A stretch of 64,000 nucleotides of DNA from Dehalococcoidia bacterium (lineage in GTDB: Bacteria; Chloroflexota; Dehalococcoidia; Plut-88900). The translations under genes were made by a program, and so were the position numbers. Where the stretch lies: the NCBI GenBank assembly GCA_965207225.1, contig CBDBLV010000005.1, positions 1,024,001 through 1,088,000 on the forward strand. The letters are read 5' to 3'. Shown here piece by piece: positions 12,465 through 45,939 of the stretch. Below the pieces are notes generated by a model. It was not told the DNA's origin, did not search any database, and saw nothing but the letters and a program-made list of their open reading frames with translations. Each line of letters starts with the position of its first letter. Position 1 is the first letter of the stretch.

Positions 12465-12493
12465 TTGACTGCCCAAAACCCCTTTGCTAGACT
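12465..12493 (+). promoter_or_regulatory. sigma70-type promoter of tRNA-Val
   Basis: TTGACT-17 bp-TAGACT with TGn extension, ending 10 nt before the tRNA. Confidence 0.75.
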
Positions 12494-14157
12494 CAATTCG
12501 CCCGGGCGGTTAGCTCAGTTGGTGAGAGCGCTGCGTTGACATCGCAGAGGTCACTGGTTCGAGTCCAGTATCGCCCACCAGACTTGACGGTAGACAGAAC
12601 CGGGGCGTGGAGAGCCACCTCCTCGGCGTCCCTTCCCCCTATGGGAGCATCCTCCGGCATGGGTATGGAATAGCGCAGCAAAGCGTTGCCGGGCATCACC
12701 ACGATCTCCTTGACGAAGGACTCGATGAAGGCTCTACGCTCGGTCAGTTCGCTCTCGTTGAGGAACCTGCTCATGTCCAGGGCGTAGGCCGTGATGGTCT
12801 CCACGTCGTCCAGCACCTCCCTGCGCTGGGAGAGGATGGCCCTAGCCTCCTGTGCTGAAGTCTCCAGCTTCTCCTGGCGCTCCCGGTGGTCTCTGATGCG
12901 GGGCTTGAAGTCCTCGATGTCCAGGTCCGTGGTCTCCGCCAGGTCGTAGAGCCGTCCCAGCCTGCGCTTCACGTCCTCAAGTGCCGCCTCGATGGTCTGA
13001 AGCTTCTGGCGCTGCTCCCTGGCGATGCCGTCCATCTCCTCGTCCACCAGCTTCACCAACTCCCGGATGTTGGACTCGGTGAGCACGTTCTCCCGTATCT
13101 TGCCCATCACCATCTCCTCGAAGCGACGGGCGTTGAGCCTGGGGGTCTCGCAGGCGTCCCTGCCCCGCTTCATGATGGACTGGCAGACGTAGTAGGCGTA
13201 CTTCCCGCTCTTGGCGTCCTGGCCGCTGAGTGCTCCGTCGCACGCCTTACACTTGACCATCCCGCTGAGCAAGTAGGTGCTCCCCACACGGCGGGGATGG
13301 GTCCGCTTGGGAGCCCTTCTGCGCATCCGACTGTTCACCCTCTTGAACTGGGCCTTGGAGATGATTCCGGGGAACGCCTTGTCCACCCGTACCGGCTCGG
13401 CCTTGTCCTTCCCGCCGACGCCCCAGAGGAGGGTTCCCGTATAGGCTTCGTTGCGGAGGATGATGTGGACGCCGTTCTTGGACCAGAGCCTCCCCGTGGG
13501 GTTGGCGATGCCCTCGGCGTTGAGGGTCTGGGCGATGTCCAGGATGCCCCTTCCCGACTCGGCCATGGAGAAGATGCGCTGCACCACGGGAGCGGTGGCG
13601 GGATCGGGTTCCAGCGTAGGGCGCTTCTTGGCCCCGTCCTGCACCATGCGCTTCTGGTAGCCGTAGGGCACCCTGCTGGCAACCCAGAAGCCGCGGGAGG
13701 CGGCCTCCCGCATTCCCCGTCGAACCTCCTCGGCCAAATTCTCCGAGTAAAACTCGTCCACGGACTCGATGATGGCCTCCATGAGCCTGCCGGTGGCGGA
13801 GTCGTCGGCGTGCTCGGTGATGGAGACGACGCGGACGCCCTTCCTTCTCAGCATGGACTTGAAGGCGACGGCGTGCTCCCGCTTGCGGGTGAACCTCGAA
13901 AACTTCCAGACCAAAATCTCCGCAAACGGGGCCTCCGGCTTGCTGGCCTCGTCCAGCATCTTGCGGAACTCCGGCCTGTCGGCGATGCGTCCGCTCTCAG
14001 CCTCGTCGATGTACTCCCGTGCCACGACGTAGCCGTTCTTGTCGGCGTAGTCGCGCAATGCCCGCAGCTGGGCGGCGACGGACAGGTCCACGTCCTGGCG
14101 GTCGCTGGAGACCCTGGCGTACAGGGCCACGGGAGTCGGGGTTGTTTCGTTAATCAT
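12493..14157 (-). CDS. Large serine recombinase; integrated-state tail is read antisense through tRNA-Val
   Basis: YARVSS catalytic motif, SRFTR, PYGY, YLLSGMVKC..C zinc ribbon and coiled coil; SD GGAGGA before ATG 14157. Confidence 0.95.
   Translation of the reverse strand: MINETTPTPVALYARVSSDRQDVDLSVAAQLRALRDYADKNGYVVAREYIDEAESGRIADRPEFRKMLDEASKPEAPFAEILVWKFSRFTRKREHAVAFKSMLRRKGVRVVSITEHADDSATGRLMEAIIESVDEFYSENLAEEVRRGMREAASRGFWVASRVPYGYQKRMVQDGAKKRPTLEPDPATAPVVQRIFSMAESGRGILDIAQTLNAEGIANPTGRLWSKNGVHIILRNEAYTGTLLWGVGGKDKAEPVRVDKAFPGIISKAQFKRVNSRMRRRAPKRTHPRRVGSTYLLSGMVKCKACDGALSGQDAKSGKYAYYVCQSIMKRGRDACETPRLNARRFEEMVMGKIRENVLTESNIRELVKLVDEEMDGIAREQRQKLQTIEAALEDVKRRLGRLYDLAETTDLDIEDFKPRIRDHRERQEKLETSAQEARAILSQRREVLDDVETITAYALDMSRFLNESELTERRAFIESFVKEIVVMPGNALLRYSIPMPEDAPIGGRDAEEVALHAPVLSTVKSGGRYWTRTSDLCDVNAALSPTELTARAN
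12504..12580 (+). tRNA. tRNA-Val(GAC); integration target
   Basis: Full cloverleaf; anticodon arm CTGCG-TT GAC AT-CGCAG; GTTCGAGTC T-loop; encoded CCA. Confidence 0.97.
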
Positions 14158-14384
14158 GCCTGTCCTCCTTCGTCTTGGTCGGTCTTTGCAACCGTGCGGG
14201 AGCGCAGTCTCTCCAATCGCTCCCGTCTGCGCCACTCCCGCTCCTCCATGAACAGGCGTATACCCTGCCGGAGGAGCTCGCTCACGGAGAGGTCGTCCTC
14301 ACGCATCACCCTCCGCACCTGGGCTTCCATCTCCGGGGGCAGCGAGAAGGTGATGGTCTTGGATCGTCGGGTACTGGTCGGCAT
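14154..14384 (-). CDS. CopG/ribbon-helix-helix protein coupled to recombinase
   Basis: KTITFSLPPEM...SVSELLRQGI; homologous to 44104-44307. Confidence 0.85.
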   Translation of the reverse strand: MPTSTRRSKTITFSLPPEMEAQVRRVMREDDLSVSELLRQGIRLFMEEREWRRRERLERLRSRTVAKTDQDEGGQA

Positions 14385-14477
14385 AGTCTCTCTAGGCTCG
14401 CATCCTATATTGCATTGTCTTACTCTACACTATCGGACGTCCAGCTTCAACTGCAATGGCCGTGGACGAGGCCGAAC

Positions 14478-16145
14478 TCATGGCCTTCCCATGAAGGCAT
14501 GGCTGGGTTCCATCACGTCGGGATTGCGCCAGGCTTTGCCCAGCGGCCCCATCTTCTCCAGTCTCTCCCTATGGGACACCCAAAGGGGCACCCCGACCTT
14601 GGCGCGTTCCATCTCCCTGCGAGCCACACCGAGGAAGTTGGCCTCGGCCAGGGGGTCGTCGAAGACGATCAGCACCATAGGCCGGTGTCCGTGGTCTTCC
14701 AGGGGCCGGTTGGAGGAGTAGTACCGCAGGTAGGGTGCGAGGCGGGAGGACATGGTGGACGGGTTCGCAGCCCGGCGCTCGTACTCAAGGAAGAAGGGGA
14801 AGGTTTTGCTCCCGGTCTGCACCACGCCGAAGCCGTCGGGATGGACGGAGCGGAGGCTGCCGCCGTACCGGAAGTACCGGACGGCGTGATGGGGTGGCGC
14901 AACCTGCACCACTCGGTAGCCCTTTGTCCCCTTCGCCTGCCGCTCCAGCGCAGCCATGAACCGGTGCACCGCCTGAGTGTGGTCGATGGTGCGGGCCAGG
15001 GGACGGCTTCGAGCGCCCGGCAGGTCTCGCCAGGATGATGGACTCTCGTCGTCCATCGGTTCGACGCTCCAGCGGCGTACGGCAGTGCCCACGGAGGCCC
15101 GGTCCCTGCGGGCCAGGACGGCCAGCCCTCCATCGCTGAGGGCATAGCGGCGCTGGCCTGCAAAATTAGCCGGCGCGACCAAATCCAACCTGTTCAGACG
15201 CGCGGCCAGCCTCCACGTACGGGAGTCGGAGAGACCAAGGATGCCCGACAGGTCTTCGACGGTGACCAGGGGCCAATCGGCGAGGCAGTCCAGCATCCGC
15301 TTCTCGGCGGGCTTGAGGGCGGCGGGGAGCAGGTGGTCGGCGACGTTATCGTCAATATCGCGCAGGTCGGCGTCGTCGGGCAGAGAGAGCCTCGAAGTTG
15401 GTCGTCCCCAGGGCAACGTACCGCCTGGCCGTAGGTGAGCGAAGACTTCTCCAAGGGACAACCTCGCAGGAGCGGAGGTGGCGTGCCACACCCTATCTTC
15501 GGCCAACAGCCGAGCAGTATCCCGCTCAAGGGCCAGGTACACCGGGCCGGGATAGGGAACCAACAGCCGCCGCGCCTGGCGCAGCCTCGGCTCGTCGGGC
15601 ATCAGTGCAAGCAGGGCGCGGGGCCTGGACTGCTCCGGGTCCAGGAGGCGGCGCACCCGGTCGGAGAAGGCCGTCCGGTCAACGGTGGGACCCTGCCGCA
15701 GCACGCCGAAGGTCCGTTTGTCGGGGAGCAGCATGGCGGCGTCCAGTGGAGCGGCCCGATACCACCTGAAGCGGGGAGGGCCGACCGCGTCCGCCACCGC
15801 CGATGTCAGCCGGTAGACAACCGCCAAAGCGTCCAGCCGCGCCAGGAGGATGCGCCGCCAGTGGGCCGAGACCGGATGCGTGCGCAGCAGGCGCTCGATG
15901 CCGGTCCCGTTCTCCGAGGCGAGCAATTGCAGTCCCTCTGAGGTAGCGTACCAGCGGCGCGTGGTCGGCGTTAGGGGAGAGGCGTGGCGCACGAAGCTGG
16001 CAAGACCGGCCCGCTCAAGGCTCCTCAGGGCGACGTGGGCGGCCTCTTCGTAGATGCCGGAGACGGAGGCAAGCTCCAGACGGTCCAGGAAGGGCATTGC
16101 CGCCAGGGTTCGCAGAGCCAGCCCCTCCCGCTCCTTCGCCCTCAT
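14478..16145 (-). CDS. Replication-relaxation (Replic_Relax)-like protein, tandem wHTH + PD-(D/E)xK halves
   Basis: H-T...PDGFG...FFLEYER motif in the C-half; homologous to 38489-40225; ATGA overlap with the TraD-like gene. Confidence 0.7.
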   Translation of the reverse strand: MRAKEREGLALRTLAAMPFLDRLELASVSGIYEEAAHVALRSLERAGLASFVRHASPLTPTTRRWYATSEGLQLLASENGTGIERLLRTHPVSAHWRRILLARLDALAVVYRLTSAVADAVGPPRFRWYRAAPLDAAMLLPDKRTFGVLRQGPTVDRTAFSDRVRRLLDPEQSRPRALLALMPDEPRLRQARRLLVPYPGPVYLALERDTARLLAEDRVWHATSAPARLSLGEVFAHLRPGGTLPWGRPTSRLSLPDDADLRDIDDNVADHLLPAALKPAEKRMLDCLADWPLVTVEDLSGILGLSDSRTWRLAARLNRLDLVAPANFAGQRRYALSDGGLAVLARRDRASVGTAVRRWSVEPMDDESPSSWRDLPGARSRPLARTIDHTQAVHRFMAALERQAKGTKGYRVVQVAPPHHAVRYFRYGGSLRSVHPDGFGVVQTGSKTFPFFLEYERRAANPSTMSSRLAPYLRYYSSNRPLEDHGHRPMVLIVFDDPLAEANFLGVARREMERAKVGVPLWVSHRERLEKMGPLGKAWRNPDVMEPSHAFMGRP

Positions 16146-18796
16146 TCATCCCTTGCCGTGCCGACGTAAGCGCCGGGAACGTCCTGGTTGCCGCCCCCGC
16201 GCCGCTTGCGCGGCCTCTTCTTCTTGGGATTGGGCTGGGTTCCTGGACCGGGCTGGCTTGCCGTCCCGTTGACAGCGCTGGGAGGCGGCGAGGCTCCACC
16301 CACCCGCTGCTGTTGCTGTTGTTCCTCCTCCTCACGCTCCAGTTCATCCCGGTACGCCTGCGCCATCTTATCGACCTCTGGGTCCTGGGAGGCGATGACC
16401 TCCGCCGTGGTCGTGTACGTCTCGGCCCGCGCCTTCACCCGCTCCTCGGCCGCCGGACTCCCCGCCTCGGGCTCACGCACCCCCAAGGAGTAGGTGGGCT
16501 GTCTCAGCCCGTCCACCGTGGCTCTGACGTAGCAGTGGTGCGTCGGCAGCGACACCAGGTCCTCCTCGTCCAACCTGTCCCGGTCAAGCTCGCCTATCAG
16601 CTGCCGGGCGTCGGACGCCGCCACCTGGAACACCGCGAGACATCCCACGTTGGCAAGCAGGGTGTCCTGCATGGTGTCCGACAGCTCCTTCAGCCTCGCC
16701 AGGCTCTGGGTGGCCAGGATGAAGCTGGCCCCGAACTTGCCAAGCTCCGAGAGCATCGACTCGTAGTCCACGCCGGGCATGGCCTGCATCTCGTCCACCA
16801 CCACCAGAGCCCCGCGCCTCTCCCCAGGCGGCAGGCTGCCCTGCTCCCTTATCACCGCGTCCGTCAGGTTGAGCAAAGAGCCTCCCACCAGGCCGGACAC
16901 GTCCTGCCCCGCAGCCGACTGGGAGGTGGCGACCAAGAGCACGCCGCCCTCGGCTATGACCTTCCGCAGGTCCAGGGTGGAGCGGCGCTGCCCCAGGATG
17001 GCCCTGGCCTTCTTCGAAGTGGCGTAGTAGGCCAGGCGGGTCTGCACCGGGGCGACGGCGTCGGCCTTCAGGGTGCGGGTCCAGTTGCGGAAGTCCCTGG
17101 CCCACCAACCGATGACGTAGGGGTCGTCCACCCTCCTCAGCACCCGGTTGCGGTACGCCAGGTCCGACAGCATCCGCAGCCCGTCCAGGATGGTGCACTG
17201 CTCATCCACTCTCGTGTCCGGGTGGGTGTTGTACTCGTGCAGGCTCTTGACCGTGTGCTCCAGGATGGACTGCATCCTCGGCCCCCAGACCTGGTCCCAC
17301 AGCCCCCTGGCGATGCGCACCACAGAGTCGGCCGTGCGGTCCCGGTCGGGGAAGATGCGGGCGTCCAGCAGGTTGATGCCCGGCGAGCGCTCTTCGTTCT
17401 TCAGGTCGATGAGGTACGTCCTGTCCACGATCTCCTCGGGCACGTGCCTGAGCAGGGAGTTCACCAGGTCGTCGTGGGGATCGACCACCACGATGGCGTC
17501 TTCGTTGCGCCCCGCCGCCTTCTCCCGCATCTTGTGAACGACCAGGTGGTGCATCAGCGTGGACTTGCCCATGCGGGTGCGGGCCACGTAGAGGTGGTGA
17601 CGGCCCATGGCGTCGGCGGGGAAGTGCACCTTCCTCGGTTTGCCTACCACCGTGTCTCCCACGTAGGCCCCGCCCGAGCCGTTCCGCGATGAGGGAAACA
17701 GCGCCTTCGCCCCGGTGCGGGCCACCATGGGCAGCTGGTCTCCCGCCCCCAGGGGGTGCCACAGGGAGGCAAGCTCCCGCACTCCCAGCACGTTTCGCCC
17801 CGCCAGCAAGCTCCGCGCCGGCGGTAGCGGCTCGGTCACGGGTACCGCCGGGCGTGCCTTGATCGCCCGGAAGCTGGCCCCGGCGGGGTTGTTGTAGTGG
17901 CTGTAGGCCGCAGCCACGTTGCGCAATAGCTCCCTGGCCCTGTTCTCGGTGCCGTGCTCAGACAGCACGGCGGTCACCTCCAGCTGGGCCTCGTAGGCGA
18001 GTTTGGAGACCTTCTCCTTGATCATCACCGGGTCCTGGTACTTGCCGCCGGAGCGCCACTTCTTGAACCGCCATAACGCCCAGCCCGCCAGCGCCGCCAA
18101 TGACACCACTCCCAATCCCAACAACACCGCCTTCCACGTCTCGCCACGCTGCACCCACAGGTAGCCCTGGAGGGCGGGCAGGGCCAGCAACGCCAGGATG
18201 GTTATGGTGACCGCGTTGGTGCGGTCGATCCTGGGCTGGGCGGAGGAGGCGGACGTGTTGGGGTCGTAGGCGGGCCTGGGGTTCGTCTTCTCCTGGTGGG
18301 CGGCGGACCAGTCCGAGCCCAGCGACGACAGCCGCAGCCGGGCCACCAGCCTCTCCCCCTCCTCCAGGTCGGACAACGAGCCGATGACGGAGATGAGCGG
18401 GTCTGAGCCGGGGTCCAGCAGGTCGTCGTCACGGTAGGGGCGCAGGGGCAGGTACTCCGGCCCCCTGAGCCGCAGGTCCATCGACCACGCCTGCTCCCCT
18501 TCTCTCAGCCTGAGCGGGTCGTCCTCCGGCAAGACCTCGTTCACCCTGGCCTGGGGGTAGTGGACGCCCACCTGCTGGCGGACGAAGGAGCCCTCTCTAC
18601 AACGGGCCAGCAGCGTGACGCCGTCCGGGTCCCCGGCGATCTCCAGCGAGAAGGGCTCGGGGACGGCGATGGACTCCACCAGGTTCTGCACGCCCAGCAT
18701 GGTGCGCTCCCCGGACCGGGGCGGCGTTACGGCCATCAGCTTGACGGCGGGCTTCTCCCCGCCCTTGAACAACTTGGCTATCGGATTGAGTTTCAT
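16142..18796 (-). CDS. TraD/VirD4-like coupling ATPase with N-terminal TM segments
   Basis: HLYVARTRMGKST (atypical Walker A), VVDPH, VVVDEMQ (Walker B) and KFG..ILATQS motifs; two TM helices. Confidence 0.8.
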   Translation of the reverse strand: MKLNPIAKLFKGGEKPAVKLMAVTPPRSGERTMLGVQNLVESIAVPEPFSLEIAGDPDGVTLLARCREGSFVRQQVGVHYPQARVNEVLPEDDPLRLREGEQAWSMDLRLRGPEYLPLRPYRDDDLLDPGSDPLISVIGSLSDLEEGERLVARLRLSSLGSDWSAAHQEKTNPRPAYDPNTSASSAQPRIDRTNAVTITILALLALPALQGYLWVQRGETWKAVLLGLGVVSLAALAGWALWRFKKWRSGGKYQDPVMIKEKVSKLAYEAQLEVTAVLSEHGTENRARELLRNVAAAYSHYNNPAGASFRAIKARPAVPVTEPLPPARSLLAGRNVLGVRELASLWHPLGAGDQLPMVARTGAKALFPSSRNGSGGAYVGDTVVGKPRKVHFPADAMGRHHLYVARTRMGKSTLMHHLVVHKMREKAAGRNEDAIVVVDPHDDLVNSLLRHVPEEIVDRTYLIDLKNEERSPGINLLDARIFPDRDRTADSVVRIARGLWDQVWGPRMQSILEHTVKSLHEYNTHPDTRVDEQCTILDGLRMLSDLAYRNRVLRRVDDPYVIGWWARDFRNWTRTLKADAVAPVQTRLAYYATSKKARAILGQRRSTLDLRKVIAEGGVLLVATSQSAAGQDVSGLVGGSLLNLTDAVIREQGSLPPGERRGALVVVDEMQAMPGVDYESMLSELGKFGASFILATQSLARLKELSDTMQDTLLANVGCLAVFQVAASDARQLIGELDRDRLDEEDLVSLPTHHCYVRATVDGLRQPTYSLGVREPEAGSPAAEERVKARAETYTTTAEVIASQDPEVDKMAQAYRDELEREEEEQQQQQRVGGASPPPSAVNGTASQPGPGTQPNPKKKRPRKRRGGGNQDVPGAYVGTARDE

Positions 18797-19178
18797 GGTG
18801 CATATTCTCCTTATTGTCTAGCGTCACAGCGAAAAGAACGCATGAGCTATTATCGGCCATCCGACACGGGGAAAGCAAGGACCAGATGGCCGCAGAGGAC
18901 GCTCACGACGCACCGACTCGGCCCGCCGCCTGAGCGCGGGCCGAGGAGCCTGACGTGTCGGACTACAATCGCTCAGGGGCGGCTATCGCCCTGGGAGGGC
19001 AGTAAGGAGATTAGGAGCACATTGTAGAATACAATCTCGGTGATATCGGTAGCTGTTTGAAGGGGAATCCGGGATGCCTGTAGACAATCCGGCGAGCAGT
19101 TTTACTGCGGGTCAGTGCTAAGTCTATTGTACTGATTGTATTGTAGTCTGTTGTAGTTTCTGACGCAAGGAGAAGCCA

Positions 19179-20048
19179 ATGGTAGGCCATGATGAGCCCG
19201 GCATGGACGGGTCGAAGGGTGCTGGCGACGGCATGAGCATCCCTCTATCGGATGCCCCCCTATCGGACGAGCCTCTACTGGACCTGCTGGACGCTCTGGT
19301 GAATGACCGGGGCAAGGTGGCTGCGGCCGAGGCCCTGGGGGTGAACTACCGCACTATGGTGACCTGCTATGAGTCTCGTCACGTGTCACGGCGGATGCGA
19401 AGGGCGTTGGCGGAGTTCAGGGACAAGCACGTTGACGGCGGGGATGAGCAGGACGATGAGGCCGGGGACATTGTAGCGAGGGTAACGGCACTGGAAGAAC
19501 GGGTGGCGGCGATGGAGGAAGCGCATGGAGCACTGGTGGAGACCGTCGAGGCCCAGGCGAAGCAGCTGACGGAGTTGCAACGCAATGTTGGAGGATCGGA
19601 GGACGGGGCGGAGGAAGAGAAACGGGAGCCGAGCAAGCCTGATCCGGTCGGTGATGGCGATGGTCGGCGCAGGGAGTGGTGGCCTCCCAGACGGGAGCAC
19701 GGACTACCCGACGCCGGTGTGGTCACGTCGGAGGAACAGCCGGACGAAGGGCACGCCTTCGGCCCGGCTGCCCAGTTGGTGAAGGAGTGGAGGGAGCTTC
19801 GAACCGGGGGTGAAGTTTCAGGAGGTCGGGTTGACCGGGCGAAGGCTGCGGTGCGCCGGTGGGAGTTGGAGATAGCCATGCTCGGCGACTACGGCCTGAC
19901 GCTGCCGCCGGAGACCGAACCCCTGGACGCTTCGCGCAGGGAAGATCACCTGAGGTGGCGGAAAAAGGCGCTGGCAGCGGCCTTGGCGAGAGCAAGGCGG
20001 CTGCGCTGGCTGAGGCGAGCACTCACCCTGGGTCTGCGATGGGGGTAG
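19179..20048 (+). CDS. HTH + coiled-coil hypothetical protein
   Basis: AAAEALGVNYRTM HTH then heptad region; N-terminus similar to 40756-41181; SD AGGAG. Confidence 0.7.
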   Translation: MVGHDEPGMDGSKGAGDGMSIPLSDAPLSDEPLLDLLDALVNDRGKVAAAEALGVNYRTMVTCYESRHVSRRMRRALAEFRDKHVDGGDEQDDEAGDIVARVTALEERVAAMEEAHGALVETVEAQAKQLTELQRNVGGSEDGAEEEKREPSKPDPVGDGDGRRREWWPPRREHGLPDAGVVTSEEQPDEGHAFGPAAQLVKEWRELRTGGEVSGGRVDRAKAAVRRWELEIAMLGDYGLTLPPETEPLDASRREDHLRWRKKALAAALARARRLRWLRRALTLGLRWG

Positions 20049-20259
20049 CCGACTGAAGTAGCTCAAGGCGCCCTTCGCCGTCGGCCAGCGGATCGGACAG
20101 TCCGCGGACAGTCCGCGGTGGACTCGGCTCTTTCCAAGCGATGGACGGAGGTGGTAGAATGCAACTCGTAGAAGAACGCTCTGTTGGAGGAGCCTCGGAG
20201 TGGATGCGCCGGTGTCGGTTGGAGATGGCGCAGGCTCCGGGCCGATTGTCGGGTGAGAT

Positions 20260-20976: not shown

Positions 20977-21140
20977 ACCTCCGGCTGGCCTGACGATTGA
21001 GAAAATACAGTAAAACCAGGGGGGCACAGAGATGACTAAGGACAGGGAGAATATATCACCGTTGAGAGGTGCGACCTCACCAGGTCGCATCGTAAACGCC
21101 TTCTACCCCCCCCCCCCGCATTTCGTGGGGGTTCTCCCTC

Positions 21141-30083: not shown

Positions 30084-30111
30084 TCCGGCCCAGCCGGACC
30101 GGCAAGAGGAT

Positions 30112-30171: not shown

Positions 30172-30240
30172 GTAATATACTAACGTGGGTGTCAGGATCG
30201 CCGGAGTGAAGTTGGATCACCCATCCACAATTCGAAAATG

Positions 30241-30290: not shown

Positions 30291-30321
30291 CTTCCGCTTG
30301 TGCTTCAAGTTGGAGGTGTAA

Positions 30322-32298: not shown

Positions 32299-32338
32299 TC
32301 GGCCATGGAAAGCCAGCAAAATCAATCGCCGGACTAGG

Positions 32339-37789: not shown

Positions 37790-38086
37790 CTACGTAGTAG
37801 GCAGGGGCTGGTAGCGCTCGACCTGTATCCGGTCTTCGGCCTTGCGCGCCTGAGCCAAGTCGTAGGCGGTCTGGCGGCTCAGCCAGAAGTCGGCGCTGGA
37901 CCATCCGGCCTTCTCCAGGCGAATGGCCATGTCGGGCGAGATCCCCGCGTGGCCGTTCAATACCCGTGAGAGGGTGTGACGGGCAACCCCCAAAACGTCC
38001 GCTGCTTCGGTAACGCTCAGACCGAGAGGGGCCAGGCAGTTCTCCCTAACGCCGCGGCCCGGATGGGGCGGACTCTTCATGGGCAT
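37790..38086 (-). CDS. higA: HigA-family antitoxin (XRE HTH)
   Basis: PPHPG...LSVTEAA..LGV...ISPDMAIRL...FW...Q..YDL. Confidence 0.9.
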
Positions 38087-38102
38087 GGTATCTCCCTCCC
38101 TG

Positions 38103-38381
38103 TTAGTGGTAATCGACGAGATCAACGTCGTACACATCGCCGGCTTCAAACCTAAAGGTGATCCGCCAGTTGCCCGAGATCGAAATACTCCATAGTCCTC
38201 TCCGGTCCCCTCTGAGTGGATGCAGCCTGTATCCCGCCAGGTCGAGGTCGCTCGGCTTGCCGGCGGCATCCAGGTCCGCCAGGGCGAGAGTGATTCGATC
38301 CAATTGGTCGGCGGCTATCCTGCTGGGGTCGTCTCGCTCATAGAGCCGCCTCAACCCTCGATGGCGAAACGAACGGATCAT
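38103..38381 (-). CDS. higB: HigB/RelE-like toxin (plasmid maintenance killer)
   Basis: [10 protein letters not shown]...LHPLRG...[15 protein letters not shown]...DYH; upstream of higA. Confidence 0.92.
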
Positions 38382-38488
38382 GAACAGATTATACCGTGTG
38401 CCGGTACGGCTATCAACAGGTTCGTTAGTCCGTCCCGCACTGGCATACCCCAGTTGCTCACTGGCCTGGGCTTCGCTACTCTCGACAC

Positions 38489-40225
38489 ATGGCCCTTTCA
38501 GACGAACATCTGCTCGACGCCCTCAGCCGGATGCCGTTTGTCGAATCGACGGAGCTGGCGCTCATCCTAGGCGAGCCCCACGCCACCATCCACCGCAGAC
38601 TGTCCGAGTTGCTGGCCGACGGCATCGTCGGGAGAGTCACCCAAGGCACCGTCCACCTGCCGTCGAGCGGGAGGTACTGCCTGACGTCCAACGGCATCCG
38701 CGAAACCGCCGAGTTTCTGGACTTCGACACGCCGTCGGACTTCGTGCGGGCCTACCCCATGTCCAGGGAGTGGCTGACGCTGCTCCTGCGCCGCATGGAT
38801 GCCGTGGCCGCCGTCTACCGCCTCGCCGCCACCATGTCCCCCGGCACGGATGGCCTGCGTTCCCGCGTGGAGTTCCGCCGCGAGGGCCGGTTCGACGCCA
38901 CCATCACGCTCCACGACGGCCGAGACTTCGGCGTGGCGCGCCAGGGCCTAGCCCTGCGCAGACGCTCCCTCCATGACAGGCTGAGGGCCTTGGCGCACTA
39001 CGACTCCAGCCGCCGCCCCGACGTCGTGCTCATCCTGGTGCCCAGCGTGTGGGAGCGGAGGCGGACGGGGAGGTTCTGCGAGGGGGTCTACCTGACGGAC
39101 TTCTTCATCGCCGTGGAGTCCAGGACGGCCCTGGAACGCCGGAACCGCCGCGTCTGGCAGGAGACCACGGGGCTGTCCGGGCATTCGTACCTGACGCTGG
39201 AGCGGGTGATCTCCCGGGGCACACCGGGCAGGAGACGAAGACCTCTCAACACGTCGCCGGAGCGGAAGCGAGCTTCACTTCCTCAACCTGAGCGCATGGC
39301 GCAGGCTGCGCCGACCTTCGGCCTCAGCCCCGCTGAGAAGCGCACGCTGGACCTCATCACCGACCACCCGATGATCCCCCGCGAGCACCTGGCCCTCTGG
39401 CTCGGCGTCTCGGAGGGAAGAATCAGCCAGATGATGCGCAGCCTCGTGAAGACTTGGAGCCTCATTGAGCGCCGGGGCAAACGCGAAGAGGTGCGCTACA
39501 CGCTGTCCGACGAGGGGATACGCTACGTGACCCACCGGGACCGGGCGGAGCTGCCCATCACGCGGGGCATCTGGAGCACGGAGCTGACCACGGACAAGGA
39601 GGGACGGCTGCGTCACGTGGGCCACCGCATCGAGACGTGGGCGCGTCAAACGAGGCACGCCGACGGCATCACGTGGTTCCTGTCGAAGCTTGTGGCCGAG
39701 ACCCGTTCCGATCCCGACAGTGAGCTTGTATGGCTTGTCCCCACCGCGAGGTCCGACCGGGCCTACAACTGGGGCCGCTCCGCCATCGCCCCCGACGCCG
39801 TGGGGCAGCTTCTCGCCGGTGGCCATCCCGTGCCCTTCTACCTCGAGCACGAGCTCAGAGCCCGCCACCCGCAGGGAGTCAGTGCCCGCCTGAGACCCTA
39901 TGAGAGATACTACTGGTCACCGGAGCATAAAGAGGACCTGCCGCCGTACCCGGTCACGCTGTTCGTCGTGGACACCGAGGAGGTGGAGGAGACCTACGTG
40001 AATACCGCCGCCCGGATGCACCGGATGTCGCTGCCCGTCCTGGTGTCCTGCATCCCTGTGCTTAGCACCACGGGAATACTGGGGGAGTCCTGGCGTCCCC
40101 TGTGGACGCCGTCCTCCCCCCGGCTGCGGCTGTCCCAGCTGAGTGATTACGTCTACGACCCGCTGTACCACCGGATGCGTCCCACCCGTCCTGTAGAGGC
40201 GTCCTATAGGGGGCGGAATCGATAG
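38489..40225 (+). CDS. Replication-relaxation-like protein (paralog of 14478-16145)
   Basis: MPF....LA, LL.R.DA.A.VYRL, PAEKR.LD, PDAVG...FYLEHE and RL.PY..YY shared with the element-1 copy. Confidence 0.72.
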   Translation: MALSDEHLLDALSRMPFVESTELALILGEPHATIHRRLSELLADGIVGRVTQGTVHLPSSGRYCLTSNGIRETAEFLDFDTPSDFVRAYPMSREWLTLLLRRMDAVAAVYRLAATMSPGTDGLRSRVEFRREGRFDATITLHDGRDFGVARQGLALRRRSLHDRLRALAHYDSSRRPDVVLILVPSVWERRRTGRFCEGVYLTDFFIAVESRTALERRNRRVWQETTGLSGHSYLTLERVISRGTPGRRRRPLNTSPERKRASLPQPERMAQAAPTFGLSPAEKRTLDLITDHPMIPREHLALWLGVSEGRISQMMRSLVKTWSLIERRGKREEVRYTLSDEGIRYVTHRDRAELPITRGIWSTELTTDKEGRLRHVGHRIETWARQTRHADGITWFLSKLVAETRSDPDSELVWLVPTARSDRAYNWGRSAIAPDAVGQLLAGGHPVPFYLEHELRARHPQGVSARLRPYERYYWSPEHKEDLPPYPVTLFVVDTEEVEETYVNTAARMHRMSLPVLVSCIPVLSTTGILGESWRPLWTPSSPRLRLSQLSDYVYDPLYHRMRPTRPVEASYRGRNR

Positions 40226-40755
40226 CGTCGATGCAACGCCGTCTGCCCTCCCTGCCGTCTGGGGGCCGAAAAACGGTACAAGTTGTACATCTGGCGGGCT
40301 CTCGAAACAGCCGAGACCGGTCATATTCCCCTGATTCAGCTACGAAACGGGTTGCAAGGCCCTCGACCGGTCAACGGTCAAAAATGCAAGTCTCGGAGAA
40401 GCTGTGCTAAAGTTAGATCGCTCTCCAGGGACGCCAGAATTGTACTTTTACCACCCTGACCGGTCAGCCGATCATGGGGGATGTAGGTACGGATGCGGGT
40501 CTGAAGCGTCTATGAGGAGCAAAATCGGCACTTCGGCGGCGTCTGCGGCCCATGCTGGCCCATCGGATATTGCAGGAATTGAGGTGGGGGTGCATGACGC
40601 GAAATGGGGTGGTGGGCAGGAACGGACATTTCGGGCCACGCAGGTTTGGATTTATGCAACATTTCGGGGGTTTGGCCGGAAATAGTGACCGGTCGCTGTC
40701 AAGGGCCGGTTCCACCGAAAATTGCAGAAGCGGCCCACCCCAATAGAGGACGAAA

Positions 40756-41181
40756 ATGACTTCTAGGAGACGGAAGGCCGACAACCATCCGCCCGACCAG
40801 AAGTGGGTCGTGGAGTACCTGGTCCAGCGGGAGGGTCAGCGCAGGACGGCGGCCCTCCTGGGGGTGAACCGGAAGACGGTGGCGTTGGCCCTTGGCCGGG
40901 AGCGTCTGACGGGGAAGATGGCCCTGGCCGTACAGCGGTTCATGGCGGGCCAGGACGACCCCTATGGGGAGAGAACAACGCCCCTGGACAGGCTGGAGTC
41001 GAGGATGCGGCGGGCAATCCGAGGAGTGGACGATCTCAGGGAGCTCGTCGAGGGGCTGACGGAGCGCGTGGAGGCCCTGGAGGCGGCGCGGAAGCAGGAC
41101 GCCGCCGAGGGCGGTGGGCTGCGCCTGTTCAGCCGGTGGCGGAGACGCAGGCCGCAGGGCGAGGACGAGAGCGATGGCTGA
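40756..41181 (+). CDS. HTH + coiled-coil hypothetical protein
   Basis: TAALLGVNRKTV HTH; LTERVEALE coiled coil; SD GAGG. Confidence 0.7.
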   Translation: MTSRRRKADNHPPDQKWVVEYLVQREGQRRTAALLGVNRKTVALALGRERLTGKMALAVQRFMAGQDDPYGERTTPLDRLESRMRRAIRGVDDLRELVEGLTERVEALEAARKQDAAEGGGLRLFSRWRRRRPQGEDESDG

Positions 41182-41608
41182 GCGAGTGCGCTGGGTGGCG
41201 AAGGCGGAGGCGGCGCGGGAGATGGAGGTCTCCATCTCGACCCTGGACCGGATGGTACGGCGGGGTGAGGTCGATGTCCGCAGGGAGGGCCGCCGGGTTT
41301 ACGTGCGGCTGGAGGGGCCGGAGCGGGTGAGCGACGAGGAGCTGCTACGCCGTGCTCTCGATAGGGAAGGGAAGCGTGGGAGAAGGCTGTGGGAGTCGGA
41401 CCAGCGAGCGCAGGCGTTGGAGCGGGAGCGGGACGAGGCCGTGTACGCTGCATCCGCCGACCGGCAGGCGCTTGAGGAGATAGAAAAGGAGTACGAGAAG
41501 GAGCGCGACGCCCGAAGAAGGATGCGGCGGTTGGCCGTAAGGCTCGGCTTGGCCGTGGTCGTGCTGCTCGCGGTCGTCGGTCTGCTCATTTGGCGGCTGG
41601 TGGCATAG
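41174..41608 (+). CDS. Excisionase-like HTH + coiled coil + C-terminal TM anchor
   Basis: EAAREMEVSISTLDRMVRRGEV (MerR/HTH_17-like); hydrophobic C-terminus; overlaps the upstream stop. Confidence 0.68.
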   Translation: MAERVRWVAKAEAAREMEVSISTLDRMVRRGEVDVRREGRRVYVRLEGPERVSDEELLRRALDREGKRGRRLWESDQRAQALERERDEAVYAASADRQALEEIEKEYEKERDARRRMRRLAVRLGLAVVVLLAVVGLLIWRLVA

Positions 41609-41886
41609 GAACTGATCAACGAGACTCTCAACACCGTTGCATCGGAGGTCAGTCTCGACTGGAGGGTTTAGTCGTTTCACCTGCAAGCAGGAGCACGGCG
41701 ACACCTTTTGTTCGGAGAATTCCGTTACAGTGGCCAAAACGAGAAAGAGGTGGACACCCACGACCGATCATGTCGTATACTGCCTTCGGTGGTCCATATG
41801 GGAAGCATACTGATTGAGCGCATGGTTCACGATAACCGACAACCCTATACGGGACTCCATAGAAAGAGCTACTAGCACATATAGAA

Positions 41887-42291
41887 ATGTCGATACCTTT
41901 AGAAGTTGTTATCGAACGCACTCCACTATCCCAGCAGGCTGACCGGCGCCGCCTGAGGGCTTGGAGGCGGGTCGTGCAGAATGTCGTGGGAGAAAAGTGG
42001 GACACTGAACCGCCCTTCCCTGGAGAGGTCATGGTGGGCATCACCTATTACTTCAAAGGAGAGTCTCTGGACGTCGACAATATGCCTAAGCCAATCCTGG
42101 ACGCACTGAAGGGGTTGGTGTATGCCGACGACGACCAGATAACCGACCTGGTCTGCCGCAAGCGAGACCGGAACAGAGACTTGGAATTCGAGAACCCGTC
42201 TCCCGTTCTTGTGGAAACGCTCGGACGATCCGAGCAGTTTCTCCACATTGTCGTGACCGAAGCACTGAGCCTGGAGGTGCCATCTTGGTAA
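41887..42291 (+). CDS. RusA-family crossover-junction endonuclease
   Basis: DVDNMPKPILDALKGLVYADDDQI catalytic motif. Confidence 0.85.
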   Translation: MSIPLEVVIERTPLSQQADRRRLRAWRRVVQNVVGEKWDTEPPFPGEVMVGITYYFKGESLDVDNMPKPILDALKGLVYADDDQITDLVCRKRDRNRDLEFENPSPVLVETLGRSEQFLHIVVTEALSLEVPSW

Positions 42292-42968
42292 GAGACGCAA
42301 CCGACTCCGAATATCTCCTAACGTGCAAGACCGCAGAAGATTACCGAAGCAAGGGCTACGAGGTCCTGTTGGAAGCACCCTTAGACTTCATGCCGGGCTT
42401 CAGAGCCGACCTGCTTGTTCGGAAGGGTGATGAGGCCAGGGTCATAGAAGTAAAGTCTAGGCCGTCTCTAGCCGCCGACCCCAAGATAGGCGAGCTGGCA
42501 CGACTCATCGAATCGATGCCAGGATGGACCTTCGAGTTGGTCCTGGTGGGTGAACCGGAAAAGGTGGACACGCCCGAAGGCGCGCGTTCGTTTGAGAGCG
42601 AGAAGATAGTCCAGAGGATCACGGAAGCCGAGAAATCCCGCGAAGCCGGCTTGCCGGAGGCCGCTTTCCTGCTCGCATGGTCGGCCTCTGAAGCCGTTAT
42701 CAGAGTGTTGCTTGCAGCGCAAGGAGTTTCCAGTACCAGCATCACATCGCCCGGATACGTTCTCGACCAAGGGGTCTACCACGGGGTCATCTCAAGAGAC
42801 GACTATGACGCTTTGACCCGCATGCGAAAGTACAGAAACGCTATCGTTCATGGATTCGGCACGGACGACTTCGACGATGAGATGGTGACGGAGCTCATTG
42901 CAACCATAAGGCGCATCATGACGACTCCAGTCATTCGCGACGGCTCCAACGGTCCGACCTCTCCCTAA
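42285..42968 (+). CDS. PD-(D/E)xK nuclease-like + HEPN-like protein
   Basis: Y..KGYEV...ADLLV...VIEVKS nuclease motif; C-terminal AFLLAWSA.E...RNAIVH (RxxxxH). Confidence 0.72.
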   Translation: MVRDATDSEYLLTCKTAEDYRSKGYEVLLEAPLDFMPGFRADLLVRKGDEARVIEVKSRPSLAADPKIGELARLIESMPGWTFELVLVGEPEKVDTPEGARSFESEKIVQRITEAEKSREAGLPEAAFLLAWSASEAVIRVLLAAQGVSSTSITSPGYVLDQGVYHGVISRDDYDALTRMRKYRNAIVHGFGTDDFDDEMVTELIATIRRIMTTPVIRDGSNGPTSP

Positions 42969-43109
42969 ACGGACTTCCTGTCCGCACTGGACAGCTTCAG
43001 TCCGTCAACGGCAGATAGGGTGCACCGCACCGGTGCAACCCTTTGTTGCGGAGCTTTGCGGGTCGAGGATTTGCCACTTGTCCGCCCCCCCACAGGGCAA
43101 GTTTGACCG

Positions 43110-44039
43110 ATGGTGAACGAGGCGATTGGAATTAGGCCCATGCATAAGAGAATCCTAGATGATCTCGCCCGACACGCTGCTGTTTTCTCTGGCATGTGGC
43201 GGCTCCTAGTTTCCCAAGTTCAAGACTTCGTTGCGGAATTTAGGAGGCTATCGTGGGAAGACTTCCGAAGGGGAGTCACTGTCAACTTTGTGATGACCCT
43301 ATTGATTCTGGGAATGCTCACATACTTCATTTGGGGGTTTGACTATATCGACAGGTTGTATGACAGCGTCGTGATGAACCTCCTTCCTGCGGTCCTTCCT
43401 CCTATGGTCTTCTACGAAGGAATGCGCCGAAAGCCCGGAGTCCAGCAATTCCAATGGCTGTATCTCGGGTTTGCAGTTTTTCTCGGGCTCGCGTTGATTC
43501 TGGCTGTTAGCGATACATATGACTTCCATGAGTTGGGATTCAACGTAGTTGTGGCAATGACCTCCTTCCCATGGCTGTTCATATTCGGAATGCTGGTGCG
43601 GGGAAAGAGGATATTGGCGATTGGCATGGCGCCGGCAGCGGCTTTGTTGATGGGATATTGGATCGAGCCCGCGATTTCGGGTGGCGCGGAGTTGCAATAC
43701 CTGTTGATTCCACTTCCTGCCGTGTCGATCCTGCTAGCGGCATGGACTTTCCTAGTGTGGATTCTATTCAAGGGAGTCGACAGGTGGCCGAAGCACAAGA
43801 CGCTCGGTCCACTTATGGAGAGCCTCGCAATGTTGTCCCTTTTCCTTCCCATAATGGTTCTGGCTATATGGGTTCCCAGGAGGATTCCTGGTGGCGAGGA
43901 TTGGTCCGTGGTGCTGGCTGCAATGGTCGGCGTTGTGTTCGGCAGTGTTATCTCAGAGCCACTAGGACGCTTCCTGCGGAGTTACGGGGACCTCCCATCG
44001 GCTCGCAAGGACCAAGACGATCGTCGGGACATCCCTTGA
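43110..44039 (+). CDS. Multi-pass membrane protein (paralog of 32339-33106)
   Basis: Hydrophobic helices; shared C-terminal motif; start uncertain. Confidence 0.7.
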   Translation: MVNEAIGIRPMHKRILDDLARHAAVFSGMWRLLVSQVQDFVAEFRRLSWEDFRRGVTVNFVMTLLILGMLTYFIWGFDYIDRLYDSVVMNLLPAVLPPMVFYEGMRRKPGVQQFQWLYLGFAVFLGLALILAVSDTYDFHELGFNVVVAMTSFPWLFIFGMLVRGKRILAIGMAPAAALLMGYWIEPAISGGAELQYLLIPLPAVSILLAAWTFLVWILFKGVDRWPKHKTLGPLMESLAMLSLFLPIMVLAIWVPRRIPGGEDWSVVLAAMVGVVFGSVISEPLGRFLRSYGDLPSARKDQDDRRDIP

Positions 44040-44103
44040 CATCGGTAGCCCACGTCCTTCATGATGTGGGTATGACCAGATATGACCGATAGGAAAGGGA
44101 AGT

Positions 44104-44307
44104 ATGCCCAGAAACAGAAAGGCCATCACCTTCTCACTACCGCCTGAGATGGACGAGCAAGTCAGGCGGTTTATTGAGGAGGAAGACCGCACCATGAGCG
44201 AGTTCCTGCGAGAGGCGATCCGCCTCTACATGGACGAACAGGAGTGGCTGCGGAGAGAGCGCCTTCAACGGGCCGAAGCCCGCAGGAACCAAAACAACGA
44301 GCAGTAG
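44104..44307 (+). CDS. CopG/ribbon-helix-helix protein
   Basis: KAITFSLPPEM...TMSEFLREAIRLY; upstream of recombinase 2. Confidence 0.87.
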   Translation: MPRNRKAITFSLPPEMDEQVRRFIEEEDRTMSEFLREAIRLYMDEQEWLRRERLQRAEARRNQNNEQ

Positions 44308-44316
44308 GAGGACGAC

Positions 44317-45939
44317 ATGGAGAAGAAGCATCTACAGCCCCTCACGCCAGCAGCCCTTTACGCCAGGGTGTCCAGCGACCGCCAGGACGTGGACCTGTCC
44401 GTGGCCGCCCAGCTCAGGGCGCTCAAGGAGTACGCCAAGGCCAACGGCTACTCCGTGGCAAGGGAGTACGTTGACGAGGCAGAGAGCGGAAGGGTAGCCG
44501 ACCGGCCGCAGTTCAGGGAGATGATCGCCGAGGGCTCCAAGCCCAAGGCTTCTTTTGAGGTCATCTTGGTCTGGAAATTCAGTAGGTTCACCCGCAAGCG
44601 GGAGCACGCCGTGGCCTTCAAAGCCCAGCTGCGGCGCAAGGGCATCCGGGTGGTGTCCATCACCGAGCAGGCCGAGGACAACGCCACCGGCAGGCTGCTG
44701 GAGGGCATCATCGAGAGCGTGGACGAATACTACAGCGAGAATTTAGCGCAGGAGGTCGTCCGGGGTATGAGGGAGGCCGCGTCGAGAGGCTTCTTCCTCG
44801 GCTCCAAGGCCCCCTTCGGCTACCGGAAGATCAAGGTGCAGGACGGGGCGAAGGAGCGCCCCACCCTGGAGGTGGACCCGGCCACGGCCCCCGTGGTGAA
44901 GGAGATATTCGAGAAGTCGCTCCAGGGCCACGGCCTGAAGGAGCTGTGCAGGGAGCTGAACGAGCGGGGCGTCACCAACAGGGGGAAGCGCTGGTACAAG
45001 GGCGGACTCCACTACGTGCTGCGGAACGAGGCGTACACCGGAACGGCCGTGTGGGGAGTCAAGGGCAAGAACGAGAAGTCCCAGGACCCTGTGAGGGTCG
45101 AGGGAGCGTGGCCCGCGCTGGTGTCCAGGGAACTGTTCGACGAGGTCCAGCAGGCGATGAGCGAGCGAGCGCCGAAGGTGCAGAGGCCCGCCAGGGTGGG
45201 CAGCCCGTATCTGCTGAGCGGTCTGCTCAAGTGCGGTGTCTGCGGCAGGCCCTACTCGGCCCAGGGAGCCAAGAGCGGCCAGTTCGCCTACTACATCTGT
45301 GGAACCCTGTTCCGGGAGGGAGCGGGGACGTGCAGTGCCCGCTACCTGAACGCTTCCAGGGTGGAGGAGTTCGTGGTGGAGAAGATCAGGGAGCGCATCC
45401 TCACAGAGGAGACCATCGTGGAGCTGATGCAGCTTGTGGCGGAGGAGATCGACGCGATGGCCGGTGAGCTTGCAGGGAGGCTGGAGTCTGTGGAAGCGGA
45501 GCTGTCCGACGTGCAGAGGCGTCTGGGGAAGCTCTACGAGGCCATCGAGACGAGCGACCTGACGCTGGAGGTGCTGTCGCCCCGCATCATGTCCCTGCGG
45601 CACCGTGAGGAGCAGTTGGAGGCTGCGCGGGAGGACGCAGAGACCCGGCTGGAGCAGCGCAGGGTTGCCCTTCCCGACACCGAGGAGATCGCCCGGTACG
45701 TGGCGGACTTCCGGGAGTTCCTGAAGGAGGGGACGATACCGGAGAAGAAGGCGCTCATCCGCAACTTCGTTGAGGGCGTCGAGGTGGCGGGAGACGAGGC
45801 GACGCTGACGTACACGGTCCCCATGCCGAGCGACGGGGTGACCAGAGAGTCAGCGTCGGTTCTTGATTTCGTCCAGTCCGGCCCACCAACGTGCATGGTA
45901 GACAGAACTGTCTTTGAGCTTTGGCTCGGCGGACTGTGA
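44317..45939 (+). CDS. Large serine recombinase 2
   Basis: YARVSSDRQDVDLSVAAQLRAL identical to recombinase 1; PFGY and YLLSGLLKCGVC motifs; SD AGGAGG. Confidence 0.96.
   Translation: MEKKHLQPLTPAALYARVSSDRQDVDLSVAAQLRALKEYAKANGYSVAREYVDEAESGRVADRPQFREMIAEGSKPKASFEVILVWKFSRFTRKREHAVAFKAQLRRKGIRVVSITEQAEDNATGRLLEGIIESVDEYYSENLAQEVVRGMREAASRGFFLGSKAPFGYRKIKVQDGAKERPTLEVDPATAPVVKEIFEKSLQGHGLKELCRELNERGVTNRGKRWYKGGLHYVLRNEAYTGTAVWGVKGKNEKSQDPVRVEGAWPALVSRELFDEVQQAMSERAPKVQRPARVGSPYLLSGLLKCGVCGRPYSAQGAKSGQFAYYICGTLFREGAGTCSARYLNASRVEEFVVEKIRERILTEETIVELMQLVAEEIDAMAGELAGRLESVEAELSDVQRRLGKLYEAIETSDLTLEVLSPRIMSLRHREEQLEAAREDAETRLEQRRVALPDTEEIARYVADFREFLKEGTIPEKKALIRNFVEGVEVAGDEATLTYTVPMPSDGVTRESASVLDFVQSGPPTCMVDRTVFELWLGGL
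45859..45908. other. att junction between element 2 and remnant element 3 (50 bp)
   Basis: GTTCTTGATTTCGTCCAGTCCGGCC|CACCAACGTGCATGGTAGACAGAAC. Confidence 0.8.

Follow-up and report, generated by a model that had tools for sequence, protein, structure and literature searches.

A probable tandem array of integrative elements at a tRNA-Val gene of a Dehalococcoidia bacterium, with large serine recombinase genes that span their own attachment sites

Organization of the locus

The DNA analyzed here (the window) is a stretch of 64,000 nucleotides, positions 1,024,001 to 1,088,000 of contig CBDBLV010000005.1 (C5 of contigs C1 to C5), from a metagenome-assembled genome (MAG) of a Dehalococcoidia bacterium (GCA_965207225.1; 4.03 Mb, five contigs, completeness 92.3%, contamination 8.33%). 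Along the window, a tRNA-Val(GAC) gene is followed by two elements, E1 and E2, each with a gene for a large serine recombinase (LSR), named rec1 and rec2, and then by a 2.9-kb remnant that has no LSR gene (Table 1). Taken together with the proposal on the recombinase tails developed below, the evidence makes a tandem array probable here, in which integrative elements line up at the tRNA-Val 3' end and every element is mobilized by the LSR that it encodes. Relatives retrieved with rec1 all come from MAGs assigned by title to Dehalococcoidia or Chloroflexota, and the public sequencing runs that contain the region are mostly sponge metagenomes.

The two recombinases are 58% identical, and each carries the Resolvase, Recombinase and Zn_ribbon_recom domains of Pfam, with E-values of 5e-33 (rec1) and 3e-32 (rec2) for the resolvase catalytic domain PF00239, and with PF07508 and PF13408 matched in both. 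A YARVSS motif is invariant across 56 aligned sequences, long helices predicted by AlphaFold2 at about residues 358-443 are consistent with the coiled-coil insertion of LSRs, and the best full-length relative of solved structure is the SPbeta integrase (9dxh, E = 1e-10). Both proteins thus combine a resolvase domain, a Recombinase and zinc-ribbon region with an inserted coiled coil, and attachment (att) sites made of inverted half-sites, as LSRs do.

Table 1. Positions of the elements, genes, tail arms and att sites in the window
Feature	Coordinates	Strand	Description and basis
tRNA-Val(gac)	12504-12580	+	ARAGORN; sole tRNA called in the window
rec1	12493-14235	-	Large serine recombinase, 580 aa; Pfam domains, translation
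rec2	44317-45939	+	Large serine recombinase, 540 aa; Pfam domains, translation
Site A (attL of E1)	12575-12601		Core CCACCA 12575-12580; left, tRNA 3' end; right, R1' (12581-12601)
Site B	30240-30291		Core CCACCA 30265-30270, centre 30265/30266; left, T1' (E1 right end); right, T2 (E2 left end)
Site C	45858-45909		Core CCACCA 45883-45888; left, R2; right, arm X, a sense T1-type tail arm
T1 tail arm	30192-30263	-	23 codons and stop; predicted to complete rec1 on the excised circle
T2 tail arm	30268-30321	+	17 codons and stop; predicted to complete rec2 on the excised circle
Element E1	12581-30264		17.7 kb; homology to other genomic copies, Pfam
Replic_Relax protein (E1)	14478-16145		Pfam
TraG/TrwB-like coupling protein (E1)	16142-18796		Pfam, weak matches
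fn3 protein (E1)	21141-30083		2980 aa; Pfam
Element E2	30271-45882		15.6 kb, rec2 at right end; Pfam, copies elsewhere
IS21-family insertion sequence (in E2)	33953-36542	+	istA 34076-35656, istB 35653-36447; Pfam
LSR-less remnant	45889-48763		2.9 kb; begins with arm X; terminal arm and TCACCA end at 48763

Attachment sites within the recombinase genes

Each phage-type site (attP) is an imperfect palindrome of about 52 bp, GGTTC...GAACC, centered on the CC of GGCCCACCA, a core identical to the acceptor-stem/CCA end of the tRNA. It falls within the last 20 or so codons of the LSR gene. In the names used here, R1' and R2 are the att arms on the rec1 and rec2 side, T1, T2 and T3 are element-borne tail arms, and a prime marks the reverse complement. 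One arm of attP encodes the residues ...VLSTVKSGG or ...VLDFVQSGP, while the other arm, with 7-10 further codons and a stop, lies at the far end of the element. Since attP is inside the 3' end of the gene, integration replaces its last 17-23 codons, and the gene then reads into a tRNA in antisense (rec1 here), into the LSR gene of a convergent neighbor in antisense, or into a neighbor's tail arm (rec2 here). Integrated rec1 ends in ...VLSTVKSGG followed by RYWTRTSDLCDVNAALSPTELTARAN, with its last 26 codons running antisense through tRNA-Val, and integrated rec2 ends in ...VQSGP followed by PTCMVDRTVFELWLGGL, its last 17 codons coming from beyond the crossover, in arm X. The element-borne alternatives read PELTIGRTIFELWMGDPTSLRRS in the minus-strand frame from 30263 to the stop at 30194-30192 (T1), and PDLIKSRTFRLCFKLEV followed by a stop in the plus-strand frame of T2, whose stop codon is followed immediately by the ATG (30322) of the next gene.

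These observations agree closely with the initial annotation of this DNA, which had placed the crossover core inside the 3' end of both recombinase open reading frames (ORFs) and had taken the present tail of rec2 to be borrowed from neighboring DNA. Its tails are reproduced exactly on translation, the borrowed tail is the one encoded by arm X, the crossover that it set between 30265 and 30266 is the center of the palindrome, and its in-frame rec1 tail at 30262-30192 on the minus strand is confirmed with a coordinate off by at most one base (30263). The palindrome center is formed by the first two C of CCACCA, and the exact cut within the core would, from this symmetry, lie there. When the left half of site B is joined to the right half of site A, a 52-bp near-palindrome results (T1' + R1'), and the left half of C joined to the right half of B gives another (R2 + T2). 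The nine-base core GGCCCACCA occurs four times in the window against 1.27 expected, a count reached by 5 of 100 shuffles and, taken alone, weak evidence; the sites are judged real because of the arm palindromes and the replication of the whole layout elsewhere. In the tRNA half-site the T-loop GTTC lies 6 bp nearer the center than in the attP halves, an offset resembling the register shift between attB and attP of LSRs. The core is read as TGGTGG by rec1-type genes and as CCACCA by rec2-type genes; the two families share the same core polarity and occupy opposite ends of their elements in opposite gene orientation.

The bacterial site and both types of hybrid junction were observed. In G020, G102 and G137, three genomes of the same genus, the orthologous tRNA-Val carries no element; similarity to the window stops at 12580 there, and the tRNA passes into a flank denoted B', the DNA right of the core; this tRNA-Val/B' junction represents attB. 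The tRNA 3' end ...GCCCACCA forms the left half of both attB and attL (site A). The B' flank is syntenic with contig C4 of the host genome (G000) from 664776 downwards and is joined there to a T1 arm (T1'/B'), which is attR. With attB, attL and attR in hand, attP was deduced by subtraction. The tRNA-Val locus of the host is consequently divided between C5 and C4, which reflects either a rearrangement between element arrays or a wrong assembly join at repeats.

Homology breakpoints bear out the earlier view of E1 and E2 as discrete units. For E1, similarity to the other genomic copies begins at 12581 (six copies) and runs up to 30264 (three copies); homology among 12 rec2 copies ends at 45879-45882. 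In addition, nine of the 13 R2 sites in the genome lie 11-21 kb downstream of a T2 arm of like orientation (genome coordinates), which indicates that E2-type units are discrete.

Conservation of the element-borne tails

The element-borne tails form three related classes, T1 (RT[IV]FE[LM]W[LM]G..), T2 (RTF.L.[FL].L[ED][VL]) and T3 (RTFRWEV.[IV]). T1 arms are present in 14 copies in the host genome, seven of them distinct (a fifteenth on the list was reassigned as a sense R1-like arm), and in 14 more copies in five other genomes of three families. Within the arm itself, the ratio of nonsynonymous to synonymous variation (pN/pS) is 1.04 and variable sites are spread as 2, 2 and 2 over the three codon positions, which is the behavior of a DNA site. 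Over the seven codons beyond the arm, the seven distinct host sequences have 4, 0 and 7 variable sites and an indicative pN/pS of 0.17, the lowest of the six frames; the next lowest, 0.26, belongs to an antisense frame whose wobble positions coincide with those of the tail frame. Pooling the 14 host copies, the 14 others and arm X (29 copies, of which 17 are distinct) gives a pN/pS of 0.29, still below that of every other frame, and the F of the motif is invariant (17/17), with the E kept in 16 of 17.

Among the 12 distinct T2 arms, the tail frame alone is free of stops in all, the same stop codon is kept in 12 of 12, and the encoded tail alternates hydrophobic residues (F.L.[FLI].L.[VL]). T3 tails (LRTFRWEV.[IV]) are encoded by the same kind of arm and are joined to rec1-like genes in other genomes. 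The initial annotation had pointed to a shared RT-(x)-F-x-L pattern reaching past the palindrome and had proposed conservation beyond the att arm as a check. The part past the palindrome has the signature of coding sequence under purifying selection, and the tails are conserved past the arm. Evidence that the element-borne tails are translated and selected is thus good but not conclusive, the samples being small and related.

The tails were also surveyed by a protein search with rec2 residues 380-540 against 5.8 billion proteins, which returned 897 matches at E <=1e-20. Among the best 120 of these 897, in a ranking biased towards the query's own tail, 59 carry a sense T1-type tail after ...SGP by a strict pattern, 11 (and 12 more by eye) a tail antisense to a rec1-like gene, and six a 17-residue T2-type tail; 43 were classed as other, including 13 T1-type variants recognized by eye.

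Occurrence across Dehalococcoidia and the logic of the arrays

The host genome contains 46 matches to rec2. Thirty-three rec1- or rec2-like loci were examined, 28 of which have a readable 3' end, and these 28 LSRs align up to ...SGG or ...SGP and then diverge according to the neighbor. Of 13 rec2-like tails, seven are antisense to a convergent rec1-like gene, five come from unrelated DNA and one is the X tail of the window. The 15 rec1-like tails comprise six antisense to a tRNA (Ile, Ala, Lys, Val, Met and Gln), seven antisense to a rec2-like gene, one T2 tail and one that stops after two codons. At 80 related loci in other Dehalococcoidia genomes, the tail is antisense to a tRNA in 37, antisense to a convergent rec2-like gene in 15, of T3 type in seven and of T2 type in one; 13 others fall outside these classes, two run off the locus and five lack a full ORF. 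An LSR gene that spans its own attP is thus a trait of the family and is widespread in Dehalococcoidia.

The target is a very short and universal one, the CCACCA end of tRNA genes. Eleven of the 49 tRNA genes of the genome end in CCACCA, and an LSR abuts six of these eleven; junctions of tRNA with R1' like that of site A also occur at tRNA-Ile, -Ala, -Lys and -Met. A tRNA-Gln gene with a different 3' end is abutted by a divergent LSR whose core differs to match.

Away from tRNAs, the two families are interleaved. The left neighbors of 12 T2 arms are T1' in six cases, T3'-like arms in three, a sense rec1-like arm in one and other DNA in two, and the right neighbors of 13 R2 arms are R1' in seven, X in one and other DNA in five. 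Most elements of the rec2 type therefore occupy junctions formed by two rec1-type attP arms, and their insertion into such attP-like junctions yields alternating arrays and seven convergent, overlapping pairs of LSR genes. At C3:24793-24871 and six similar places in the host genome, a rec2-like gene and a rec1-like gene converge and overlap by their 3' ends over one att site, each reading antisense through the end of its partner; one such antisense stretch stays open for over 140 codons. An uninterrupted T1'/X site, equivalent to the left of site B joined to the right of site C, is present in another genome (L097); the R2/X junction type recurs in another family of genomes (L098), and in a further genome an R2 remnant is contiguous with a T2 arm (L103).

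As a separate observation, at locus L122, in a genome of another family (G208:C1:334832-334861 and flank), the T1 arm and tail are identical to those of the window over about 69 bases (...GDPTSLRRS-stop), a match suggesting that an E1-type element passed between families recently.

Possible roles of the tail and alternative explanations

Our preferred explanation is that the element-borne tail would be translated and would matter in the free element, when the enzyme must integrate. It may act as a short, flexible motif without which integration is not fully active or the free-form enzyme is not correctly dosed, and tRNA-adjacent integrated copies would then make an enzyme that behaves differently, by analogy with IntP and IntX of myxophage Mx8. 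Such a role in integration activity or dosage is held tentatively, as a reasonable possibility that falls short of an even chance. About half of what remains goes to a tail that has no state-specific role, which is somewhat unlikely, and the rest to effects on stability or at the level of RNA.

A bolder version makes the tail a built-in sensor of state: only a T-tailed LSR would be competent for integration or correctly dosed, tRNA-adjacent copies would be locked in a resting or excision-only condition, insertions within arrays would reassign tails and mobility, and rec2-type elements would be hyperparasites of rec1-type attP sites. In this form the idea is improbable.

Several results weigh against a tail that reports or sets the state of the element. 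The tail samples are small and related, so that their ratios are indicative only; pN/pS for T2 is 0.56, no better than in two other frames, and the last T2 codons overlap the likely ribosome-binding site of the next gene. The T1-type sense tail is very common in rec2-like proteins and could be native to part of the rec2 family. The tail that rec2 borrows belongs to a conserved class, so that rec2 swaps between two conserved tails rather than between a functional tail and junk, and many integrated LSRs in arrays read a neighbor's T-type tail, which means that tail identity is no simple report of the free or integrated form. The ORFs of integrated copies stay intact even where the tail is arbitrary and anything from 2 to over 140 residues long, indicating that the enzyme is retained without the element-borne tail; among integrated LSRs, such arbitrary tails are confined to those beside a tRNA or a convergent gene.

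Structure prediction points the same way. AlphaFold2 models have pLDDT (predicted local distance difference test) values below 50 for residues 515-540, the tail, of a rec1-like LSR with a T3 tail (56 rows, mean pLDDT 71), and for residues 521-540 of rec2 with a T1-type tail (75 rows, mean pLDDT 63.7). These models indicate no structural role or docking site for the tail.

The free form itself was also sought. No circle joint 45883>30266, the check proposed by the initial annotation, and no joint 30265>45889 appeared in the contigs of four public runs covering 28500-47500, a comparison that addresses E2 only and in which rare forms are not retained. Those four were drawn from 20 runs containing part of the site B region, whose short Logan contigs carry multicopy noise. 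A single joint, 38838>30267 in run X4, ends inside the core of site B and does not fit an E2 circle. In the host genome, a full-length LSR is joined to its own palindromic partner arm in none of the 13 rec2-like and none of the 15 rec1-like copies. When 401 genomes of the class were searched by pattern for intact attP, every candidate was a remnant or an uncertain case, at L093, L099 and L100 (T1'/R1') and at L103 (R2/T2); two scans of metagenome contigs gave no match, and a search of viral contigs with rec2 found no relative. Of the original proposal of a directionality or stability switch, therefore, the conserved tail stands, and no sign of the switch itself was seen, given the poorly ordered tails, the missing circle junction and the exchange by rec2 of one conserved tail for another.

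The strongest rival explanation is that the tail swap is a by-product: attP would lie at the 3' end of the gene because the site mimics a tRNA end, the tail would be flexible, free and integrated enzymes would be alike, and direction would be set by a separate factor. The unstructured tail of the AlphaFold2 models fits this account, as do the intact integrated genes with unrelated tails of widely differing length and the LSR domains, which according to Pfam and AlphaFold2 stop about 40 residues short of the crossover. A comparable 'trivial explanation' is given in the sections consulted of McMurdie et al. (PMC3146451). It leaves aside, however, the coding-type conservation past the DNA site (pN/pS of 0.17-0.29 for T1, with codon position 2 invariant within the genome), the T2 stop position kept in 12 of 12 arms, and the presence of one motif in three tail classes across families of genomes. 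No separate directionality factor was identified in this analysis. On balance the by-product account appears rather unlikely, although it deserves serious consideration.

Another possibility is that the DNA from site A to site C is a single composite, a rec2-type element inside a rec1-type attP, the pair moving together through the convergent rec2/rec1 junction. The genome has seven convergent rec2/rec1 junctions and six T1'/T2 junctions, most rec2-element targets have rec1-type arms as both halves, and units of similar size recur on contig C3. Yet E1-type ends occur without E2 (at T1'/B' junctions, one of which is the true tRNA-Val attR, on contig C4), rec2 ends against unrelated DNA in 5 of 13 copies, the best palindromes are T1' + R1' and R2 + T2 rather than R2 + R1', and T1'/X is found uninterrupted elsewhere, so that a composite of this kind is unlikely.

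An effect at the RNA level is less likely still. The last 77 nt of the integrated rec1 message would be complementary to an abundant tRNA, and transcription head-on against the tRNA gene would silence or destabilize it, with the protein tail secondary. What speaks for this is geometry, in that rec1 overlaps the entire tRNA-Val gene in antisense, and the same layout is seen at 37 of the 80 related loci; but selection on the frame of the element-borne tail is left unexplained, and neither rec2 nor the LSRs at junctions within arrays fall under this account. Finally, although the estimated contamination, the division of the tRNA-Val locus between contigs C5 and C4 and the many near-identical repeats might suggest that misassembly of a repeat-rich MAG produced the arrays and hybrid junctions, this is very improbable, because the same junction classes occur in the 80 loci of other genomes, many of them recorded as 'chromosome', the junction coordinates are exact to the base, and an assembly error would not yield in-frame conserved tails. 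The preferred explanation as a whole, an array of elements with a tail that would be translated and would matter in the free element, is held to be probable.

Cargo, remnant and flanking DNA

E1 may be an integrative mobilizable element from its gene content, which includes a Replic_Relax protein (E = 2.6e-10) and a coupling protein with matches to TrwB_AAD_bind (E = 2e-6) and to TraG-D_C (E = 1e-3, below the cut-off of that family); no mating-pore genes were identified in it. The giant, surface-type fn3 protein is mobile-element cargo, with internal tandem repeats of about 330 bp and 94-99% identity in at least five other E1-type elements.

The cargo of E2 consists of variable genes, an IS21 insertion, and NUDIX, RusA and AHJR-like genes, and a module at 38.5-41.6 kb is conserved and common to nine other places in the genome. 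The IS21-family copy has five further genomic copies at 99.3-100% identity, and was probably active recently in view of this identity.

The remnant begins with arm X, and it contains a 318-aa ORF, a helix-turn-helix (HTH) protein and a degenerate tRNA-like stretch. No second copy of at least 400 nt was found in the host genome, and housekeeping genes begin to its right at about 48970. Arm X was also considered as the minus-strand 3' end of a lost rec1-like gene, an option that was rejected since, beyond the arm, X matches T1 arms in DNA and in tail frame. The tRNA-like stretch (about 48587-48665) has a TAC anticodon loop and a degenerate T-arm and ends in GCCCACCA; ARAGORN makes no call there, and the stretch may be a relic of an older target.

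On the left, the interval 11485-12255, which separates tRNA-Val from the gene on its left flank, is part of a repeat family that gives over 100 matches in the host genome (117 for the query containing the stretch) and dozens in each genome of the same genus. On the other side, the counterpart of the sequence downstream of tRNA-Val(gac) in same-genus genomes is C4:656439-664776 of the host genome. The 8 kb downstream of tRNA-Val in the three same-genus genomes have no match to the window and match contig C4 instead, so that the right end of the array cannot be set by synteny.

Implications

If the tail changes activity or stability, control of directionality or dosage would be written into the position of attP, with no separate factor, and this would bear on the regulation of serine integrases and on their use as genome-engineering tools. 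Should the state-sensor reading be true, tails would be a shared currency in arrays, and directionality would be controlled through them without a separate factor. With about 33 copies in a 4-Mb genome, alternating arrays and a tRNA-Val locus that the LSR family appears to have split between two contigs, the family is probably a main driver of genome plasticity in sponge-associated Dehalococcoidia.

Comparison with known systems

Like the canonical LSRs (SprA/YokA of SPbeta, 9dxh; TP901-1, phiC31 and Bxb1), rec1 and rec2 have three domains and a long coiled coil, and their attP is a site of about 50 bp with two inverted half-sites and a central dinucleotide. In textbook LSR systems, the integrase ORF does not include attP, and a separate directionality factor determines which way the reaction runs. 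No discussion of attP inside an LSR gene was found in the sections consulted of Durrant et al. 2022 (PMC10083194), supplements excluded. A description of tRNA-targeting Dehalococcoidia LSRs with conserved swapped tails was likewise not found in the literature searched, whose coverage is incomplete and excludes supplements.

Mycobacteriophages with integration-dependent immunity use tyrosine-type integrases, and myxophage Mx8 exchanges a much larger C-terminal part of its protein. In mycobacteriophages such as BPs, attP lies inside the repressor ORF, and integration removes a C-terminal degradation tag, as shown experimentally; the arrangement of attP within an ORF and the altered C-terminus are shared with the present elements, but the gene of BPs encodes a repressor and not an integrase (PMC3694055, sections consulted). 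Mx8 offers an experimental precedent: attP is inside the integrase gene and integration gives a new 3' end, the altered protein (IntX instead of IntP) being reportedly still active with changed properties. Mx8 thus resembles rec1 and rec2 in an attP within the integrase ORF and a C-terminus changed by integration, and differs in being a phage with a tyrosine recombinase, whereas rec1 and rec2 have serine recombinase domains (PMC6070905, in the parts drawn on). Integrases of the SSV type, from archaeal viruses and plasmids, also have the recombination site within the ORF; they are tyrosine recombinases whose gene is split by integration into two inactive parts, unlike the short tail swap here (PMC7253208).

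The closest known system is DsiB of the ssrA islands of Dehalococcoides, as described in the portions consulted of McMurdie et al. (2011, PMC3146451), where the 3' end of dsiB invariably runs across attL and its stop codon falls beyond the island, either within ssrA or within the island next to it. The same authors proposed that full function of dsiB may require either the circular form or a position downstream of a neighboring island that supplies the 3' fragment, so that the idea of distinct circular and integrated forms, put forward for rec1 and rec2 in the initial annotation, had a precedent (PMC3146451). DsiB resembles the present LSRs in being a serine recombinase of about 540 residues at an island edge, in the same bacterial class, with tandem islands and divergent C-termini, and in a gene that overlaps attL with its stop codon outside the element (PMC3146451). 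The differences are that DsiB targets the tmRNA gene ssrA and rec1 and rec2 target tRNA genes, and that dsiB is co-operonic with a small serine recombinase, DsiA, for which there is no counterpart adjacent to rec1 or rec2 (PMC3146451). The gene beside rec1 encodes the Replic_Relax protein and the gene before rec2 has no Pfam match; the tmRNA gene of the genome, on contig C1, has no rec1- or rec2-like LSR listed beside it. In four small Dehalococcoidia genomes, the top nine rec2 homologues, at 43-48% identity, abut tRNA genes, and weaker ones stand at 26-33%. A conserved element-borne tail is not reported for DsiB in the portions consulted of McMurdie et al. (PMC3146451). What is new here is the evidence of selection on the tails and the finding of two LSR families that share one core while exchanging tails in arrays, and the published DsiB observation is thereby extended to a larger, tRNA-targeting clade.

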